From a virus (taxonomy: Duplodnaviria; Heunggongvirae; Uroviricota; Caudoviricetes), in the IMG/VR virus record IMGVR_UViG_2548876950_000015, positions 1-7,243 of that record: DNA of 7,243 nucleotides; one strand, 5' to 3'. Under the pieces are notes generated by a model, which searched no databases, was not told where the DNA came from, and saw only the letters and a program-made list of their open reading frames with translations. The first letter of the stretch is position 1, and the number at the start of each line of letters is the position of its first letter. This document shows positions 1-7,243 of the stretch, one piece after another. The position numbers and the translations under genes were made by a program.

Positions 1-1797
1 TTAGAACTCCTTCACATCTGCGCCAGAAGACACGCTCCAGATCGAAACAGGCGACCCGTTTACACCTATTAACCTTGCTTTCAACCCATTTCCGCTTGCT
101 CTTGGTACGGTTAAATTTGCAGCAGATGGATTCATAGCCCAATCTCCTCCATTTAATATGACACTCATTTCAACTACGCCACCATTATCAATATCTATTA
201 TAGGTGTTTGCACTACCGGGCTTTGTTGATCAATTGGCAGAAAGCCATTGACAATAATAGATGGTCTGAATGATGGGTTTCCCTGAACGCTAACACGAAG
301 TTGCCCACCCTTAACAAATTCTGTTGCACAAGTATTCATGACAATGCAATACGGATTTACAAAATCAAATGCATAGCAAATTGACTCCCCATCCATTGGC
401 GTGCAGTTTTCAGCAGTACAATTGGTCATGGTGGTATATTGCATTCCTGACATTCTAAATGACAACTGGTAACCGTTAACCTGAACAAGGCGCATATCCA
501 TAGAAGTGCCTATTACTTTTATTTGACCATCCCTAAAATCTTCAAATAAAACGCCAGCATATCCTTTCCCTGGATATTGTGGGAAACCGACCATTTCCAT
601 TACGCCAGAGAACGGCACATAAGAGAAGCATCCGATATAAGCACATTCAAAAATTGACTGTCTGATAACTGGTGCTGCTGATTTTCCTAAAAACAGTCCG
701 TAATAATTTCTATAAGAATCTACGTTTTCTTGTGTTAAGCCAAGCCTTCTAAACATGCAGTTTTCAACTCTACCGTTAACACAAAATGAACTCATTGAGT
801 TATCTGTTAGATCCCATTGTTTTGGTATAAAAGCACATAATGCATCCACCTGAAGAATTACTTCTCCATTTTTTGTGAGATCTATTTTGTCATTTGTTGT
901 TTTATAAAAAACTGTCGCTTCAGCCTTTCCCTGTCCTCTAATTCCCATATTGTCATAAATTGGGATTGTTTTTGATGTATTTATGTTTCCAGCAGGAGCC
1001 TCTAGAATGCATTTGTTTGAGCGGGCAAAGTTAGTTGCAAGAGTTATAGCTGTTGCGTTATCTGTGACTCCGTCAGGTTTCACCCCCCAAAATTGCATGT
1101 CGTAAGTGGTAAAATTAATTCGTCTCCATACCATCGTTCCAGTTTCTGGCTTGATTACAATTCCACCATCATCAGCCCACGCCTGAATGTTATCAACAGA
1201 CTCGAAAAAGCCGCCACCAAGGTGGTTTTCAGCATGTGTAGTGCTAGCTGCTGATGCTACGTATACAATCTGCCCTGCCTCCTCCGGAACACAGGAGCGA
1301 AGCTCTGAAAGATTGAGAAAGCGGCCAATAGCGTTAAATCCTGTTTTATCAATTAATGAATCATGTGTAGCTTTCAAGATCTCCAGCTCAATCTTTACGG
1401 TTGTGCCTCCATAACCAACCAGAGATGCGCCATCATGGCCAGAAAGCTCAGCCCTTAACTGATCTGGAGAATATTTCAGTAGATCAGGATAATAGAATTG
1501 TTGTGCACCATACGCATCATACACAGCCATGGAGTGATTCTGTACAGTTACGAACTTGGCAATCTGTCCGTTATATACAGGGTAACCAGCAGCGTTAATG
1601 ATGATTGGTTGCGAAACAGGGACGTGAGAACCATCTTCGTTCTCCACATAAACCTGAATCTGGTTTTCAGGATTTACAGGGTCAGTGTCAATTTTACCAA
1701 TATAAATTTTGCCATTGGCAACCGCTTTAAAAGAACGCGCCATAGTGAAGAGTTGCGAAGGCATCGATACGATCACATTGGCTGTAATGTCTGTCAT
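1..1797 (-). CDS. Tailspike protein: P22 gp9-type head-binding N-terminal domain fused to a divergent receptor-binding domain
   Basis: 598-aa ORF, ATG at 1797-1795 with GGAG about 10 nt upstream, TAA stop at 3-1. The first ~110 residues ([59 protein letters not shown]...KYSPDQ) match, from memory, the conserved head-binding domain of P22 gp9 and the Sf6/HK620 tailspikes. The rest does not resemble the P22 endorhamnosidase body as I recall it. Position after the immI module matches P22 synteny. Confidence 0.88.
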
Positions 1798-1855
1798 TTA
1801 ATTTGCTCCAGATGCAAGGAATCGCCGCAGCATGGCTACGGTGAATTTTGGGCAT

Positions 1856-1880
1856 AAAAAAAAACCCAGCCGAAGCTGGG
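1856..1880 (-). terminator. Rho-independent terminator downstream of the antirepressor-like gene
   Basis: Read on the minus strand: 6-bp GC-rich stem CCCAGC / GCTGGG (1880-1865) with a TTCG loop, followed directly by a run of nine T (plus-strand A-run 1856-1864). Lies about 20 nt after the stop at 1900. Confidence 0.6.
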
Positions 1881-1899
1881 TCGTTGCGTTGGTTATCTG

Positions 1900-2790
1900 T
1901 CAGTAGTTATGTACTGAAGGAGGTAATTCTTTATTCTTAAGTCTCATCCATGCGGAACGATTCGTTGGTCCGTCTGGCTCATTAATATCAACATCTAGTG
2001 TGTGATTGATTAAAACGTCTCTCGCTATATCGATAATACGGGAGAACTCATAACCGCAGTCATGACATCTGCCGGAATAGTTCGATTGAATTTGTTTCAG
2101 CGCCGGATACAATTCGCGGAATAATGCCTGTGAGCGGTTGGCATAATCCCATAACCATACAAGGCTGTTTGCTTCTTTTGCAGAAAGCTCGTTGGTTTTC
2201 TTCTCTTGTTTGCCGATAAATTCACCTTCAAGCACTACCCTGTGGATGTACTCTACGGCCAGCGGGATTTGTTCAATTGAAAGTTCATCAATGCTGTCAA
2301 TACCAAAACGCTGATGAACCATATTGTATGCATCGTCATAGCGAAGTCCTTTCTTTCCTACCAGCATGTTTACTGCATCGCGTAGCGGTGTGCGTTCAGC
2401 TACTGAAGTTTTACCGCCAATACTCTTCCTCTCTTGTGTGGCAGTAACCATTGCGTCATATGCACGGATAACCTTCAGCGCAAATGCTGCGCTAATCCAC
2501 ATGGCGTAGGAGTAAACAAGCTCCTTGCACACGTAGGTTCCACCATATCGACCTTTCTTAGAAAGGACGGGATTCTTATTCTGCATATCCGCAGAATTAA
2601 AAATTTCATTAATCAATTCAATAGTTTCATTTCTACGCATGAAGAAAGCTGGCTGATGTTTTTCCTCCTTTCCAGACGCTACATGAAGGTCATTAAGCGA
2701 GTAACGACCCTCTGAATCCATATGAATCTTGACGTCAGAAATGATGATGCTATTAGTGCAATTTACAGTTGACTTTGCTAAGCTTGACAT
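1900..2790 (-). CDS. KilA-N domain antirepressor-like protein
   Basis: The ORF track extends to 2856, but that start is a GTG overlapping the upstream stop. The ATG at 2790-2788 (MSSLAKS...) has a GAGG 10 nt upstream and puts the KilA-N-like motif ([39 protein letters not shown]) near the N-terminus, as is usual for this family. Family call is from motif recollection only. Position after arc corresponds to ant in P22 immI. Confidence 0.62.
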
Positions 2791-2852
2791 ATCAATAATA
2801 CCTCGTAAGTTTTGTTGATACCGAAGCCCTGACTGTTCCCGCAGTTGGGGCT

Positions 2853-3074
2853 TCACTGTTTTTGTAAGTCACTGTAGCTATAAAGCCACTGACCACTCAT
2901 TTTTGATTTGATTGACTCTACTGAGTCACGGCAAGGAATGATTCCGCCTGACATCATTCTGATCTCCGTAAATTCACCACTCCTTATCGATTCAATGCCA
3001 TCAATGTTAACTAAAGATTTACCTCTACCAAGTGCATTCTCATAGCCAATCTCATCAACCTCAATAAACCTCAT
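2853..3074 (-). CDS. Hypothetical 73-aa protein between arc and the antirepressor-like gene
   Basis: ATG at 3074-3072 overlaps the arc TGA stop (ATGA). A GAGGGG sits about 8 nt upstream. TGA stop at 2855-2853. No family recognised. Confidence 0.4.
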
Positions 3075-3229
3075 GCCGTTATCCCCTCTCTCTTCAGGCT
3101 GTCCAACACTCGCTTGTAAATCTCAGAGTTAACAGATCGCCCGTTCTCTTCAGCTACCTTGCGCACCAAATCCAATACTTCTTTAGGCCACCGCAAATTG
3201 AACTGAGGCATTTTTCTTGCACCTTGCAT
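3071..3229 (-). CDS. arc: Arc-like ribbon-helix-helix transcriptional repressor
   Basis: Manual minus-strand translation gives [52 protein letters not shown] (52 aa), near-identical over the core to P22 Arc as I recall it (MKGMSKMPQFNLRWPREVLDLVRKVAEENGRSVNSEIYQRV...). ATG at 3229-3227 with GGAG 6 nt upstream; TGA at 3073-3071. Missing from the ORF track because it is under 60 aa. An in-frame ATG at 3250 would add 7 residues but has no SD. Confidence 0.85.
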   Translation of the reverse strand: MQGARKMPQFNLRWPKEVLDLVRKVAEENGRSVNSEIYKRVLDSLKREGITA

Positions 3230-3322
3230 ATTCAACTCCATTTCACTCATTGATAGTACCGTACTACTATTGAAAGCGTACTACTACCGTTCTAGCATGT
3301 CAACAAATAAAAGGAGAACGAC
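3230..3322. promoter_or_regulatory. Divergent mnt/arc control region with overlapping candidate promoters and operator-like repeats
   Basis: 93-bp interval between divergent arc and mnt. Inverted repeat TAGTAC-c-GTACTA at 3254-3266 inside GATAGTACCGTACTACTAT (3252-3270), whose flanks resemble the P22 arc operator as I recall it (ATGATAGAAGCACTCTACTAT). Direct repeat CGTACTACTA at 3260-3269 and 3277-3286. Candidate rightward promoter: -35 TTGAAA 3270-3275, -10 TAGCAT 3293-3298. Candidate leftward promoter: -35 TTGACA (complement of 3298-3303), -10 TACGCT (complement of 3275-3280). Confidence 0.5.
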
Positions 3323-3565
3323 GTGGCTAGAAATGATCCACAATTCAACGTAAGAATGCCTGATGAGATAAAACAGCAACTTACGCATATTGCTGCAACA
3401 AATCGCCGCTCGATAAACGCAGAGATTATTTCAGCTATCGAACTATGGATAAAAATTCATAAAGGGCAGCTAATACCTTCAAGTAGTCGAATCCTGACAA
3501 AGTCTGAGCAAGAGGCGTTTGATGTAGCTATTGATGTGTTAAAACGTGTAAGAGATGGAGGATAA
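3323..3565 (+). CDS. mnt: Mnt-like ribbon-helix-helix repressor
   Basis: 80-aa ORF with GTG start at 3323 preceded by AAGGAG (3311-3316). N-terminus MARNDPQFNVRMPDEIKQQL...NRRSINAEI resembles P22 Mnt as I recall it (MARDDPHFNFRMPMEVREKL...NGRSMNSEL). Divergent from arc, as in P22 immI. Confidence 0.85.
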   Translation: MARNDPQFNVRMPDEIKQQLTHIAATNRRSINAEIISAIELWIKIHKGQLIPSSSRILTKSEQEAFDVAIDVLKRVRDGG

Positions 3566-3567
3566 CC

Positions 3568-3801
3568 ATGGAGCAACAACAAGGGTCGCCATTATCATTG
3601 ATTATTATGGTGATTTTTTTCGTTTTTATCTTTTTTATACCTGCGTTAAAAATATCCAAAAAGGCCGGCTTTGACTGGAAGATGGCTGTATGTTTAACAA
3701 TCCCTGGCTTTAACGTGGTGGCGTGGCTCGCGCTTGCGTTCATGGATTGGCCAATTCACAAGTATCTACCAAAAGATGTGAATCGTAAGGATGCAAAATG
3801 A
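3568..3801 (+). CDS. Small two-helix membrane protein, co-transcribed with mnt
   Basis: 77-aa ORF. ATG at 3568 lies 2 nt after the mnt stop, with GGAGG (3557-3561) 6 nt upstream. Hydrophobic stretches LSLIIMVIFFVFIFFIPAL and MAVCLTIPGFNVVAWLALAF, basic C-terminal tail. No family recognised. Confidence 0.6.
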   Translation: MEQQQGSPLSLIIMVIFFVFIFFIPALKISKKAGFDWKMAVCLTIPGFNVVAWLALAFMDWPIHKYLPKDVNRKDAK

Positions 3802-4007
3802 ATAAAAAACAGCTTATTAAGTCAAAAACGTCAAGCAAGGAAGAATTAGAGAAGGAGCTAAACTCCCTGAAATATGCTCTGTGTCTGGTTTACTCAAGAC
3901 TGCCAATGGAAGATAAAAACGCCATTTACAATGAAATGATTAGCAGCCTTGATTTTAACGATAGAGACCTAGCATCCCACCTCAACAGCTTCCGCGTCCC
4001 TGAGTAA
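3798..4007 (+). CDS. Hypothetical 69-aa hydrophilic protein, translationally coupled to the upstream membrane protein
   Basis: ATG at 3798 overlaps the upstream TGA stop (ATGA); AAGGA 6 nt upstream. Charged, helix-prone sequence. TAA stop at 4005-4007. Confidence 0.5.
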   Translation: MNKKQLIKSKTSSKEELEKELNSLKYALCLVYSRLPMEDKNAIYNEMISSLDFNDRDLASHLNSFRVPE

Positions 4008-4167
4008 TTCTGTTGCGGATTTGCTTCTTGCGGTGGTTTAAGCTGGAGAGCTTGGCTTCTGCTTCTGATATTTGCGCATCAAGATCTTTAAGCTCAAGAT
4101 CTGAAAGTCGCTGGTCAAGCAGGGTTTGGTTCAACTCAATGTTGTTCAGGCGTTCTTCTATGGTCAT
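3982..4167 (-). CDS. Hypothetical 61-aa coiled-coil-like protein
   Basis: ATG at 4167-4165 with AAGGAG 5 nt upstream. MTIEERLNNIELNQTLLDQRLSDLELKDLDAQISEAEAKLSSLNHRKK has heptad-like Leu/Ile spacing. The longer track ORF begins at a GTG (4215) with no SD. Its 3' end overlaps the 3' end of the 3798-4007 gene by 26 bp. Confidence 0.4.
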   Translation of the reverse strand: MTIEERLNNIELNQTLLDQRLSDLELKDLDAQISEAEAKLSSLNHRKKQIRNRITQGRGSC

Positions 4168-4308
4168 GATTTCTCCTTGTTGAGGTTGATGTGAAACGAT
4201 TGATTGTATACGCACTCTTTTGTTAGCTAGTAGCTTTGCTTAATCGCAAGATAAAGTTTCTGATTAATCCCTAAAAATCAAAAAATAAAGTTAAAACAGG
4301 TACATGAT
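4168..4308. promoter_or_regulatory. AT-rich divergent intergenic region, presumed promoters for the 3982-4167 (-) and 4309-4512 (+) genes
   Basis: 141-bp AT-rich spacer between two divergently oriented small genes, with several TTG-containing hexamers (for example TTGTTA 4220-4225, TTGCTT 4236-4241). I could not pair a convincing -35/-10 by eye. Confidence 0.3.
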
Positions 4309-4512
4309 ATGGAATGGATCATAGGATTTGTTGTTCTTATCTTCATAGCCAGTATGTTTAAACCAAGAAGTTGCGATATCTGTGGTGCTGGATTTAAGAA
4401 AAAGTACTTCACATGGACTATCGATGGAAAGAAACAGCATCTTTGTCCGTACTGCAACAGTAAAATGGAGAGGCGCAACAGCGATAGGCGCTTTAAGGAT
4501 CGATTTGGTTAA
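4309..4512 (+). CDS. Membrane-anchored zinc-ribbon mini-protein (N-terminal TM helix plus CxxC-x23-CxxC)
   Basis: 67-aa ORF MEWIIGFVVLIFIASMFKPRSCDICGAGFKKKYFTWTIDGKKQHLCPYCNSKMERRNSDRRFKDRFG: one hydrophobic helix, then two Cys pairs (CDIC, CPYC), then an Arg/Lys-rich tail. TAA stop at 4510-4512 is followed about 20 nt later by the terminator hairpin. SD is weak. Confidence 0.55.
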   Translation: MEWIIGFVVLIFIASMFKPRSCDICGAGFKKKYFTWTIDGKKQHLCPYCNSKMERRNSDRRFKDRFG

Positions 4513-4530
4513 CCATTTTATCTCCAACAA

Positions 4531-4560
4531 AAAACCCACCTGACGGTGGGTTTCATTTCT
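4531..4560. terminator. Bidirectional rho-independent terminator between convergent genes
   Basis: Hairpin CCCACC-TGAC-GGTGGG (4535-4550). On the minus strand it is followed by TTTTTTGTTGG (strong, serves the lipoprotein gene ending at 4560). On the plus strand it is followed by TTTCATTTCT (weaker, serves the 4309-4512 gene). Confidence 0.7.
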
Positions 4561-4979
4561 TAATCTTGCTTTGTAGACGGTATAAGGGATGCGTTTGCCT
4601 CTTTTGGCTTCAAGGTATACATCCCACCATTAAATGGATCAACAGCAAGCCAACCAATTAACCCACCAAACACAAGGTTTCCACCAATATACCAACCATT
4701 AGCATTGGCTTTGATTGGCAGGGTAACTGGTTCGTACCCATCCTTTTCCATAGTGATCTGGTAACTCTTTTTGCCAAAATAACTACCATCTGACTTGGCA
4801 AGAGTTACTCCTTGTGGGGTCTTACCTTGCGCAACAATCACGCCTGATTCGTCTTTTACCTTAAAGCTCGCACCGGAAGGATTGCTGTTCACTTGCACAA
4901 GCTGTGTTTCGTCACCAACAATAGTTGCGCACCCAGATAACATGATAGCGCCAGCAACGACGCCAATAATCCTCTTCAT
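4560..4979 (-). CDS. Lipoprotein with a PEGA-like beta-rich domain and a Gly-rich C-terminal segment
   Basis: Signal peptide with lipobox: MKRIIGVVAGAIMLSGC. The track ORF starts 4 codons earlier (ATG 4991, MEID...) with no SD; ATG at 4979 gives the canonical lipoprotein N-terminus. The mature region (NSNPSGASFKVKD...GKTP...ITMEKDGYEP) resembles a PEGA-type fold by motif recollection. C-terminus GWYIGGNLVFGGLIGWLAVDP is Gly-zipper-like. TAA stop at 4562-4560, then the strong terminator. Confidence 0.7.
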   Translation of the reverse strand: MKRIIGVVAGAIMLSGCATIVGDETQLVQVNSNPSGASFKVKDESGVIVAQGKTPQGVTLAKSDGSYFGKKSYQITMEKDGYEPVTLPIKANANGWYIGGNLVFGGLIGWLAVDPFNGGMYTLKPKEANASLIPSTKQD

Positions 4980-5074
4980 ATCAATTTCCATATCTAAAAA
5001 ACCGGAAACATCCTAATGACAAACCATTCAAATGTGAAGCACGAGATAAGATCAATCCATCCGTGGACGACTAA

Positions 5075-7243
5075 TTACTCCTGTGTCATTCCGCTTAGCG
5101 ATGCCACAATCCCAGCCCTCGACAAACGCTGGAACTCTTCGTTTCCTAGTGCATCGCGAATTGCTTTTACGGCGGCCTTATTTGCCATAAATCTGCGTTC
5201 CGCCGCCGCTAATGCGCCATCACTTGCCCCAACCTTAACTGCCTTTGTTGCCTCTTGAACAGCCTTTTCAATAGCGTAACGACCACTTCTGGTTGCGGAT
5301 AATTTCGCTATCGATCCTTTTGCTATCGCATCAATTGCTCCACCAGCAGCGCCACCCACTATTGCTCCAATAACACCTCCTCCAGAGAACCCTGCGATAG
5401 CGCCAGCGGTTGGAAAAGCGCCAGACAATACGCTCTCTAAAACTGGATGAAGGCCATTCTCAAGAGTGCTAATGGCTGGCATAGAGCGCCCTGTTTGTTC
5501 AACATATCGAAGTGGCTTTGTTGCAGCTCTTGCAAGTTCTCCGTATGAACTTGTAATCCTGCCAAGTTCTGGAGAATATCGACTAATTGCCTTCACGTTT
5601 TGTGGGGTAAGAATAGTCGCGATATGCTTAATTCCAGCTCCTTCAGACTTACCTCCGCGTACCCCTTGCGATACCGCATCTTGTAATATTGATGCAATTG
5701 CTGGCGCGCGTTCCGACTCAGGTAGGGCGCTTATTATTTTATGGAACTGACCTGTTCCACTTTTTGCTGAACCCTGTAACGCCTTAGATCCATTAGTTAC
5801 CAACTGATCAGTTGCAAGGTCTCTACCAAACGCTGCTTCAGCCTGTTCTTGTGCTGTAAATCTTGCCTTTGACAGATCATTAGCTTTTTGCCAGTCATCA
5901 AGAAAATCGCCATTTTGAGCCATTATGCGCATATCTTCCGTTGCTGCATCACGAAGCTCAGCCATGCGCCTTGCCGTATTTGCCTCACCAGACCTTATAT
6001 ACTTCTGCTCTGCGTCAGCAAGTTTACTTCGCCATGCCTTCATGGCATCAAACGTGATTCCTTTTTTACCAGTTTTAGCATAAGCAGATGCGAATTGTTT
6101 CATCTCAGGAGTTAGCGGCATGCCAGCCAAAATATCACCCTGAATTGTAGCGTTCAGGTTTGACATTCTGGCCTTTGCGTCAGGCATCGTGGAGCGGACG
6201 CTATCCCATGCGGCCTTTTCTGAATTTTTCATTTTATCAATACTTGCCAAAACCCTTTGTTTTATGGCTGCACTTTTTTCTGATGCAGTTCCTGCTTCAG
6301 CCCCAAACTCATCCAATGCTGAGTTAAATTTCGACTCTATTTCACTGAATGCTTTGGTGTGTGCATCCTGTGTAATTCCGGGCTTTGATGCCAGAATCCC
6401 CTCCGCCTGAGCAAGACCACGACTACCTGATCTCATGCCAGGAGTTAATGCGTTGATATCTATTCCAGCAGTATCTGCTGCTTTTGCTATTTCGTCTGAC
6501 ACATTAGCTGACTGTCTGGCAATAATCTCTCTTCCTGTACCAGACTTTGCCATTTTCGAAACATCAGCAGCGGAATTTATTGCCCCGCCACCAAGAACTT
6601 GAGGTGATTTAGAGGTTAAGATCCTTCCAGCCCCAGAAAGTATCCCCTGAGCACCAATATTGATACCACCGTTAATGGCAGCATTTTGTGCAAAGTCGCC
6701 CTCCTGATTTGCAGCATCAGCAAGAGAACCTGCAATCATGTTTCCTGCGGAACCGATATCTCCAGCGAGCTTTGCTGGCGCTCCAGCAGCTTTTGCCGCT
6801 GTGCCAATTGGCAGGAGATACCCACCAATTGTTTCACCGGCTTGCGCGTAAGGGTCTGTCGGTCGATCGACAGGGCGATAAACATCATCCAAAACCTTGG
6901 GGCCGCCAAGCCCCTGGCTGATTGCATTAATCAGACTTGCGCCACCCTGCAATACGTCAAATGGTATGTTTACCAGACCACGACCAGCCTGTTCTGCAAT
7001 TTGCCCTGCACTTTGACCACCTGTGAGCCAATCACCAGCTTGTTGCATCAATGATGGTTCTTCTTTCTGCTGCTGAGGCGGAGGGTATGCTGCATAAAAC
7101 TGATCTCTTGCTTCAGCCCATTTGTCACCAGCCTTAGGGGCAACAACCTCATCAAAATATTGCGCTTGAGCCTGTGCTTTCTGTTCTTCAGTTAACGCCT
7201 GATACTGTGGAGAAGCGATAACATCTTTCCATGCTTTAGCCAT
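5075..7243 (-). CDS. Phage DNA-ejection / DNA-transfer protein (P22 gp16/gp20-like by position and composition)
   Basis: 722-aa ORF; ATG at the window edge (7243-7241), so the true N-terminus may lie outside the window. TAA stop at 5077-5075. Ala/Gly/Gln-rich, low-complexity and helix-prone, with a Gly-zipper segment ([31 protein letters not shown]) near the C-terminus. It sits on the distal side of the accessory island, where P22 has gene 16. Product assignment is by synteny and composition, not by remembered sequence identity. Confidence 0.6.

Follow-up and report, generated by a model that had tools for sequence, protein, structure and literature searches.

ORF73, a conserved gene coupled to arc in a P22-type immI region, occupies a slot for alternative small cargo genes between arc and sar

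With its Arc, Mnt, sar and Ant, the immI region of phage P22 serves as a textbook example of a regulatory circuit. Here we analyse a stretch of 7,243 nucleotides (nt) of tailed-phage DNA (positions 1 to 7,243 of the IMG/VR virus record IMGVR_UViG_2548876950_000015; hereafter the window), which holds a classical P22-type immI region with one extra gene, a 73-codon open reading frame (ORF) called ORF73. We found that the interval between arc and sar, in which ORF73 lies, is a general cargo slot that holds at least nine unrelated families of small genes. Judged by its conservation and substitution pattern, ORF73 is a protein-coding gene under purifying selection. The best explanation overall, to which we give about an even chance, is that ORF73 is a real, coupled accessory cistron whose product may form a ring directed at the host or at a competitor.

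Bases 1800-3600 of the window are 98% identical to Salmonella phage vB_SemP_Emek (Lederbergvirus, P22-like; hereafter Emek), and bases 2700-3300 match an E. coli prophage at 100% identity. The canonical order mnt, arc, sar, ant was recognised through Pfam and Rfam matches. The slot and the elements around it are composed as follows (aa, amino acids; CDS, coding sequence; SD, Shine-Dalgarno sequence).

3071-3229, minus strand: arc, ribbon-helix-helix repressor gene, 52 codons from MQGARKMPQF (Pfam Arc, 91.7 bits; annotated in Emek as 159 nt)
3074-3103, minus strand: C-terminal tail of Arc (DSLKREGxxx type), left slot boundary, found on three divergent Arc N-terminal classes
3083-3088, minus strand: SD GAGGGG, 8 nt 5' of the ORF73 ATG, within the arc codons R-E-G
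3071-3074, minus strand: ATGA overlap of the ORF73 start with the arc stop (TGA 3073-3071)
2853-3074, minus strand: ORF73 CDS, 73 codons plus TGA (PHROG 11805 over the full length, E 2.8e-53; orf73 in Emek)
2853-2864, minus strand: right slot boundary, CAAAAACAG-TGA, the TGA being fused to the sar stem (TGAAGCCCC)
2792-2857, plus strand: sar antisense RNA gene (Rfam RF00262, 61.7 bits against a gathering score of 43, E 2.9e-11)
2823-2854, plus strand: sar terminator stem-loop, with a T-run to about 2863, within the last ORF73 codons (terminator scan)
2788-2852, minus strand: ant mRNA leader, with hairpin I from the ORF73 stop codon and hairpin II over the ant SD and AUG
1900-2790, minus strand: antirepressor-like gene, 296 aa, KilA-N and P22AR_C domains (Pfam, 68.8 and 97.1 bits)

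The antirepressor-like gene also matches PHROG 2812/245 and is annotated as ant in Emek. The RNA fold of its leader has an energy of -24.2 kcal/mol (z -3.1), and the leader of a cargo-less relative (L005) is the same as that of the window.

On the minus strand, ORF73 starts with the ATG at 3074-3072 and ends with the TGA at 2855-2853. A preliminary description of this DNA had reported a 73-aa ORF whose ATGA overlaps the arc stop codon and which is preceded by a GAGGGG SD; all of these were found as described. Its proposal that this is a signature of translational coupling agrees with the conservation of both elements, since overlap and SD are kept in all 30 related loci that were fetched (29 with ATGA and one, L026, with GTGA) and the overlap persists as GTGA even in the divergent homologue described below. 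The SD belongs to a longer pattern, GAYAGCCTGAAGMGNGAGGGG, common to all cargo-bearing arcs. ORF73 is also, as had been stated, out of frame with ant, whose ATG at 2790 lies 284 nt away (284 mod 3 = 2). That it might be a split or degenerate Ant N-terminus, already doubted in the preliminary description, was rejected: it has no P22_AR_N, BRO-N or KilA-N match, its frame is wrong, and it precedes complete Ants, which fall into three types by their N-terminal domain and whose genes begin in at least six different 5' ends.

The P22 order, with ant directly after arc, takes the form arc, sar, ant in epsilon34 and in an E. coli relative that shares mnt and flanks with the window, and an extra gene is indeed interposed in the window. 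The description of this gene as lying between arc and ant stands for its upstream side, where it follows arc, but not for its downstream side, where the sar antisense gene comes next and not ant. The relation to the neighbours has to be qualified in the same way, the fixed partner of ORF73 being arc and not ant (it stands before at least six ant 5' ends). The suggested tie to the arc/antirepressor switch is sound in that expression of ORF73 must depend on the Pant operon.

Some alternative starts were met in this part of the locus. Two in-frame ATGs are present in the arc ORF, which extends mechanically to 3250; the upstream ATG would add 7 residues (3229-3250, minus strand), and the 52-codon form annotated in Emek aligns with other P22-type Arc N-termini (MKGMSKMPQF…). 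At the other end of ORF73, a mechanical ant ORF of 318 aa (1900-2856, minus strand) begins with a GTG that overlaps the ORF73 stop (GTGA) and runs in frame through the sar hairpin. This GTG at 2856 was rejected as a coupled ant start on account of an in-frame TAA in related leaders. An antisense ORF of 45 aa at 2908-3045 found no support.

To define the limits of the slot, the window was aligned with epsilon34 and with an E. coli prophage that shares its mnt, ant and flanking genes, both of them relatives without cargo. Divergence begins inside arc, about 10 codons before its end, where the relatives read ...SEIYQRVMESFKKEGRIGA. It stops precisely where the stem of the sar terminator begins, GAAGCCCC, and leaves sar and the ant leader unchanged. 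Because the divergence runs from the last codons of arc to the sar stem, the unit that differs is the Arc tail together with ORF73, upstream of the sar target. On the left, a cargo ORF, intact or decayed, follows the DSLKREGxxx-type Arc tail in nearly all cases, and cargo-less arcs end in SFKKEGRIGA or similar; this one tail type is found on three Arc classes, and the ant 5' ends downstream of it are of at least six kinds. On the right, every cargo family ends AAA[AC][GA][TG]TGAAGCCCC, the A-run of this boundary being the U-tract of the sar terminator on the opposite strand, and, wherever the sar stem was found, an intact cargo ORF terminates at offset -2 relative to it. The distance from the arc stop to the sar stem is 216 nt in the window against 4-7 nt in cargo-less phages. 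Two loci (L143 and L173) combine a cargo-type Arc tail (DSLRREGITV) with only 33 nt before the sar stem, and may be remnants of a deleted cargo.

Two scans of IMG/VR, both incomplete samples, were used to survey the occupants of this interval. In the first, the database was searched for the Arc-tail DNA GAYAGCCTGAAGMGNGAGGGG and 80 loci were analysed out of 87 matching stretches; they gave 79 cargo ORFs, 19 of them distinct. ORF73 was present at 12 of the 80 loci, and elsewhere a different small ORF started from the same ATGA or GTGA. The second scan started from the sar hairpin and is therefore a sample not selected for the Arc tail. It gave at least 53 loci without cargo, in which arc ends 4-7 nt before the stem or is fused to it, and at least about 25 with a cargo ORF, so that the slot is occupied in about one third of the sampled sar-bearing immI regions. 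Comparison of arc-ant junctions across P22-like phages, which the preliminary description had proposed, showed a general slot, with ORF73 intact at the 30 fetched loci, and the picture of a one-off insertion has to be abandoned: at least nine cargo genes, ORF73 among them, alternate in the same arc-coupled position. The families are listed here with locus counts that pool both scans and are lower bounds.

67-aa Cys-rich protein: at least 26 loci, about 10 of them frameshifted
57-aa basic protein: at least 19 loci
ORF73: at least 12 loci
89-aa protein with a hydrophobic N-terminal stretch and weak matches to coiled-coil families: at least 10 loci
74-aa zinc-ribbon protein: at least 7 loci
60-aa protein that passes the Pfam threshold of the ClpX C4 zinc finger (42.2 bits): at least 5 loci
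80-aa FlbD-like protein: at least 3 loci
63-aa Cys-rich protein: at least 2 loci
61-aa Cys-rich protein: at least 1 locus

Several of these cargos resemble ClpX-type zinc fingers, and those families that are held in PHROGs are listed there without known function. An additional Cys-rich ORF of 71 aa was seen in one locus, at which the sar stem was not resolved. In phage CUS-3 (L205, CP000711), the segment 2277-2758, annotated only as "bsq2; boundary sequence", holds a complete 67-aa Cys-rich cargo, and an unannotated arc presumably lies just upstream of it; the epsilon34 paper describes CUS-3 as apparently lacking arc.

The length of ORF73 is not by itself above chance, as the window contains 69 mechanical ORFs of at least 30 aa; it is judged above chance because it is conserved, and conservation together with the ratio of nonsynonymous to synonymous substitution rates (dN/dS) rules out a chance ORF. 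Full-length ORF73 was found at 95-100% nucleotide identity in 51 of 5,426 complete E. coli genomes, each time annotated as a CDS beside an Arc gene. Among ten DNA alleles of 222 nt, with that of the window as reference, dN/dS did not exceed 0.48 (0.14-0.48 for the eight alleles with protein differences, the ninth showing a single synonymous change). An exhaustive HMMER phmmer search of 1.84 billion representative proteins gave only one more distant relative, an 84-aa protein with 65% identity (P0008), and otherwise a truncated allele and a low-complexity false match (P0009). Between ORF73 and this homologue, dS is 1.13 (saturated), dN 0.25 and dN/dS 0.22, an 11-codon insertion is in frame, and 42 residues are invariant; the homologue lies in the same context as in the window (mnt, arc, GTGA overlap, ORF, sar hairpin, ant). 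A profile search for further ORF73 relatives added nothing, and there was no match in a set of one genome per GTDB species.

Not every copy of ORF73 is intact. Three damaged alleles (P0002, P0006 and P0007) were collected, namely a 90-aa stop-loss form reading into the sar hairpin, a 48-aa frameshift and a 45-aa in-frame deletion; the last, in which residues 34-61 are gone, was seen on 9 contigs. One further locus, L004 of E. coli 203740 (1311-4755), contains two tandem immI modules, the first with mnt, arc, ORF73 and a truncated BRO-N ant pseudogene and the second with mnt, arc and ant; ORF73 is intact there although its own ant is broken.

The preliminary description had called the ORF unrecognised, which does not hold: it is already annotated as orf73, a hypothetical protein, in Emek, as a hypothetical protein in vB_EcoP-611R6 and RefSeq, and it belongs to PHROG 11805, to which no function is assigned. 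In the literature searched (on Emek, immI, genes between arc and ant, and SwrD in phages), neither the ORF73 gene nor the slot was described, and neither its probable fold nor its membership of the slot was found there.

The ORF73 protein (8.3 kDa) is acidic, with an isoelectric point of 5.0 and a net charge of -2.5 in both lineages (the 84-aa homologue being acidic too), and ends in a conserved aromatic tail, SGQWxYSYxDL. Among sequence families, only Pfam FlbD (PF06289, the SwrD family) gives a signal, at 14.6 bits and E 0.025; this model matches all 8 family members in the same register, every time below threshold (E 0.007-0.025). A reference set of 47 FlbD sequences was aligned, taken from the matches to a consensus query; every listed match carries PF06289. 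Compared with this set by hhalign, ORF73 gave a P-value of 7.9e-4 over 43 columns and paired its N23, I27, E28 and T36 with N15, I19, E20 and T28 of SwrD, which are conserved or structurally important positions there. All four residues are invariant in the ORF73 family, N23 and I27 in both lineages, and the conserved Asn15-x-x-x-Leu/Ile19 of SwrD, on a pore-lining 3-10 helix, thus has its equivalent in N23/I27. The surface loop Pro26-Asp27-Thr28 of SwrD is not kept in ORF73, which reads E34-F35-T36 there, only the Thr being the same.

As a control, an unfiltered FlbD hidden Markov model was run against 13,691 unique six-frame segments of at least 40 aa from 1.84 Mb of P22-like DNA. The 80-aa cargo took ranks 1-2 and the ORF73 family, including its divergent member, ranks 3-11 (E-values of 0.15-0.76 for the ORF73 family). 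The 80-aa protein, another occupant of this slot, clearly resembles FlbD (hhalign probability 93%, E 3.6e-7), and the two cargo families probably share the FlbD fold type. Consistent with this, the best AlphaFold2 model of ORF73 (from an alignment of only 6 sequences) has a predicted local distance difference test score (pLDDT) of 81.6, above 90 for residues 21-60, and its order of strands (E) and helix (H), E2-8, E18-23, a turn at 24-26, E27-32, E36-40, E45-48 and H52-60, is that of SwrD. Foldseek against viral models (BFVD) placed phage proteins annotated "Flagellar and swarming motility protein" on top, with template modelling (TM) scores of 0.6-0.8 and probability 1.0; the structurally similar proteins include some from phages of Mycobacterium and Enterococcus. 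On this evidence, which is of moderate strength, we lean towards a SwrD/FlbD-RemA-like fold for ORF73, which would consist of a beta1-beta2 hairpin, a 3-10 turn with N-x-x-x-I, strands beta3-beta5 and a C-terminal helix.

Other searches were negative. Among solved structures, a sequence search gave only a chance-level match to FAIM1 (E 0.097), and tblastn of an FlbD consensus against phage genomes returned a single unrelated metagenomic phage. ORF73 was not retained as a candidate defence-system protein, having no match among the defence proteins of PADLOC or in NCBIfam.

The role that we propose for ORF73 is built on the P22 circuit, in which Pant is active as soon as the cell is infected and is then repressed by Arc, Mnt keeps it repressed in lysogens, and sar blocks the ant ribosome-binding site. 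ORF73 would be the third cistron of a Pant operon composed of Pant, arc, ORF73, the sar target with the ant leader, and ant. Ribosomes finishing arc would translate ORF73 by means of the ATGA overlap and the SD in the special Arc tail, so that synthesis of the protein would run roughly parallel to that of Arc. On the model of P22, we infer a short burst after infection or loss of Mnt, followed by shut-off by Arc, and silence in lysogens. Because it lies upstream of the sar target, ORF73 should escape the antisense block that sar exerts on ant. It would then not belong to the core switch but be one exchangeable cargo of the slot, whose product, as a predicted ring, could bind a protein of the host or of a rival phage early in infection, for host take-over or counter-defence; the SGQWxYSYxDL tail may join in binding the partner. 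We do not think that ORF73 acts on immI DNA or RNA, and a protein partner would fit its features better. This accessory role directed at host or competitor is favoured because the slot holds unrelated proteins, most relatives are cargo-less, the Arc, Mnt and Ant partners vary, ORF73 persists intact even next to a truncated ant, and the protein is acidic.

Several points weigh against the accessory ring-forming protein that we favour. For its fold, the Pfam FlbD score lies below the 24.7-bit gathering threshold, the hhalign probability is only 25%, only 2 of 5 AlphaFold2 models are confident and the best of them stands on six sequences, the model of the 84-aa homologue has a pLDDT of 41, and Foldseek against the PDB gave nothing significant. 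For its role, the timing is extrapolated from P22, ring and target rest on prediction, and the best-studied relatives of the fold (RemA and LytTR domains) are DNA-binding regulators and the gene lies in a regulatory operon, so that a regulatory role keeps some probability. Finally, ORF73 is dispensable in some lineages, because frameshift, in-frame-deletion and stop-loss alleles exist.

The main rival is a dedicated immI regulator. ORF73 would then be a fourth regulator of the region, a RemA/LytTR-like ring on Pant, Pmnt or Psar DNA or on the sar-ant RNA that tunes the antirepressor together with Arc, which would suit a gene embedded among two repressors and an antisense RNA and strictly linked and coupled to arc. 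We hold this to be unlikely: most P22-like immI regions work without ORF73, about two thirds of the sampled ones having an empty slot, and the same slot accommodates unrelated zinc-finger, membrane and other proteins. ORF73 itself is acidic, lacks the Arg50/51/53 insertion of RemA and is found with different Arc, Mnt and Ant types and operators. The unrelatedness of the slot occupants could also be taken for a sign that translation from the arc stop to the sar hairpin is what matters, by an effect in cis on folding of the ant leader, pairing of sar or stability of the transcript, the identity of the protein being secondary. Indeed, every intact cargo family has its stop codon fused to the sar stem, with one and the same offset, and a terminating ribosome would open hairpin I of the ant leader. 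A purely cis role is nevertheless improbable because selection is seen on the protein sequence (dN/dS 0.22 at a dS of 1.13, with the 42 invariant residues between lineages); moreover, cargo-less phages obtain the same geometry with an arc that ends 4-7 nt before the stem or is fused to it, and about 10 loci carry a frameshift in the 67-aa cargo with the rest of the locus kept.

Other readings concern the target of the protein. Small early phage proteins often block host housekeeping processes, and ORF73 might block cell division or another such process as a functional counterpart of P1 Icd, which targets FtsZ. The parallel is that P1 icd also has 73 codons, lies in an antisense-controlled immI operon with a 4-nt overlap with ant1, and encodes a protein that binds FtsZ; we give it little credence, as ORF73 has no sequence relation to Icd (hhalign P 0.78) and Icd is coupled to ant and carries the C4 target, whereas ORF73 is coupled to arc and precedes the sar target. 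An action like that of SwrD/FlbD on the flagellar motor, which would alter host motility during infection, draws on the fact that the sole sequence-family signal is Pfam FlbD and that SwrD is tied to stator and torque function. This we regard as highly improbable: the surface motif P-D-T of SwrD is lost except for T36, phages of Mycobacterium and Enterococcus, genera whose members are mostly non-motile, encode structurally similar proteins, and SwrD is reported to be absent from Escherichia. A more specific form of the accessory role is that the arc-sar interval is a counter-defence or anti-competitor locus analogous to acr-aca operons, with Arc as an Aca-like autorepressor, ORF73 as a ring-forming inhibitor of a host immune protein or rival prophage, and the ClpX-zinc-finger-like cargos as alternative inhibitors; we put this forward only tentatively and regard it as more doubtful than the general accessory role.

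The remaining features of the window around the slot are given below.

1-1797, minus strand: tailspike gene
1863-1882, minus strand: intrinsic terminator 3' of ant, closing the Pant operon (terminator scan; annotated in Emek)
3270-3303, both strands: divergent promoter region, with a Pmnt-like site on the plus strand at 3270-3298 (same scan)
3303-3298 and 3280-3275, minus strand: -35 TTGACA and -10 TACGCT of a putative Pant, proposed from position, likeness to the epsilon34 annotation and sequence reading
3323-3565, plus strand, divergent: mnt-like ribbon-helix-helix repressor gene (Pfam Arc, 47.3 bits; mnt in Emek)

The -10 element of the putative Pant is a poor match to the consensus. The arc-mnt promoter region at 3255-3300 is unlike the one annotated in epsilon34, with a repeated AGTAGTACG and a palindrome TAGTACGGTACTA, and these differences suggest another operator specificity. 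Two small plus-strand ORFs lie 3' of mnt and overlap each other by ATGA: one of 77 aa at 3568-3801, with a hydrophobic N-terminal stretch (PHROG 32536), and one of 69 aa at 3798-4007 (PHROG 16466). Expression in lysogens would be expected for both if they are co-transcribed with mnt. Farther away, an ORF of 67 aa (4309-4512, plus strand) combines a hydrophobic N-terminal stretch with a zinc-ribbon-like motif, CDIC…CPYC, and an ORF of 143 aa (4560-4991, minus strand) with a lipoprotein-signal-like N-terminus (…AIMLSGC…) lies between immI and the gene of a DNA-transfer (ejection) protein.

About one third of the sampled immI relatives thus carry an extra arc-coupled gene with exact shared left and right junctions. 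By analogy with P22, the slot would provide a ready list of small phage proteins expected in an early, self-limiting burst, the way in which known anti-defence and host take-over proteins are expressed. It also offers an engineering rule, a gene being insertable into the operon without disturbing sar or ant. If the fold proposed for ORF73 is right, the SwrD/FlbD-RemA fold would be extended to enterobacterial phages.

Compared with the immI regions of P22 and epsilon34, the window has the same repressors (mnt and arc), divergent promoters, sar, ant leader hairpins and order, likewise an Ant with P22AR_C and a terminator in front of the tailspike gene. It differs in the 222-nt gene that separates arc from the sar stem (arc ends 4-7 nt before the stem in P22 and epsilon34), in the last 10 or so Arc codons, which are of another type than ESFKKEGRIGA, and in the N-terminal domain of Ant, KilA-N instead of P22_AR_N.

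With SwrD/FlbD, ORF73 shares the predicted order of secondary structure, the N-x-x-x-I/L at the 3-10 turn and a core register that is the same across methods, and its best viral structural matches carry FlbD-type annotation. Crystal structures of SwrD/FlbD from B. subtilis and B. burgdorferi are hexamers (PMC13232269); in SwrD hexamers, as in RemA octamers, beta1-2 of one subunit pairs with beta3-5 of the next, and the SwrD pore is lined by the N-x-x-x-I motif position that ORF73 keeps. ORF73 departs from SwrD/FlbD in its sub-threshold Pfam score, its unconserved P-D-T loop, a beta1-beta2 loop longer by 8-19 residues and a C-terminal tail that is conserved and aromatic where that of SwrD is variable and charged; it lies in an immunity operon of phages whose hosts are reported to lack SwrD, always between arc and sar, whereas SwrD belongs to a flagellar (fla/che) operon. 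RemA, an activator of biofilm formation, forms an octameric ring that wraps DNA (PDB 7BME / 7P1W) and binds it via an Arg-rich beta3-beta4 insertion. ORF73, like SwrD, lacks this insertion and has a 3-residue turn, S-G-E, between beta3 and beta4; it is acidic and has no match to the Pfam RemA family.

The P1 immI region likewise has a 73-codon ORF in an antisense-controlled antirepressor operon with a 4-nt overlap with a neighbour; icd overlaps ant1 and carries the target of the C4 antisense RNA, whereas ORF73 overlaps arc. Homology was rejected, hhalign giving no aligned region, and the parallel is architectural only. Finally, acr-aca operons also co-transcribe a small autorepressor with variable, unrelated small cargo in conserved flanks, the cargo being expected in an early burst and then shut off. 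In P22, Arc represses its own promoter. A ribbon-helix-helix regulator, Aca14, has been shown to fill the Aca role (PMC13551039). The slot differs from these operons in that its cargo is downstream of the repressor and translationally coupled to it, that the operon also encodes an antirepressor and an antisense RNA, and that inhibition of a defence system is neither demonstrated nor predicted for any of its cargos. The arrangement itself is found in the slot, where the Arc tail and the sar stem enclose at least nine families of cargo beside a conserved repressor.

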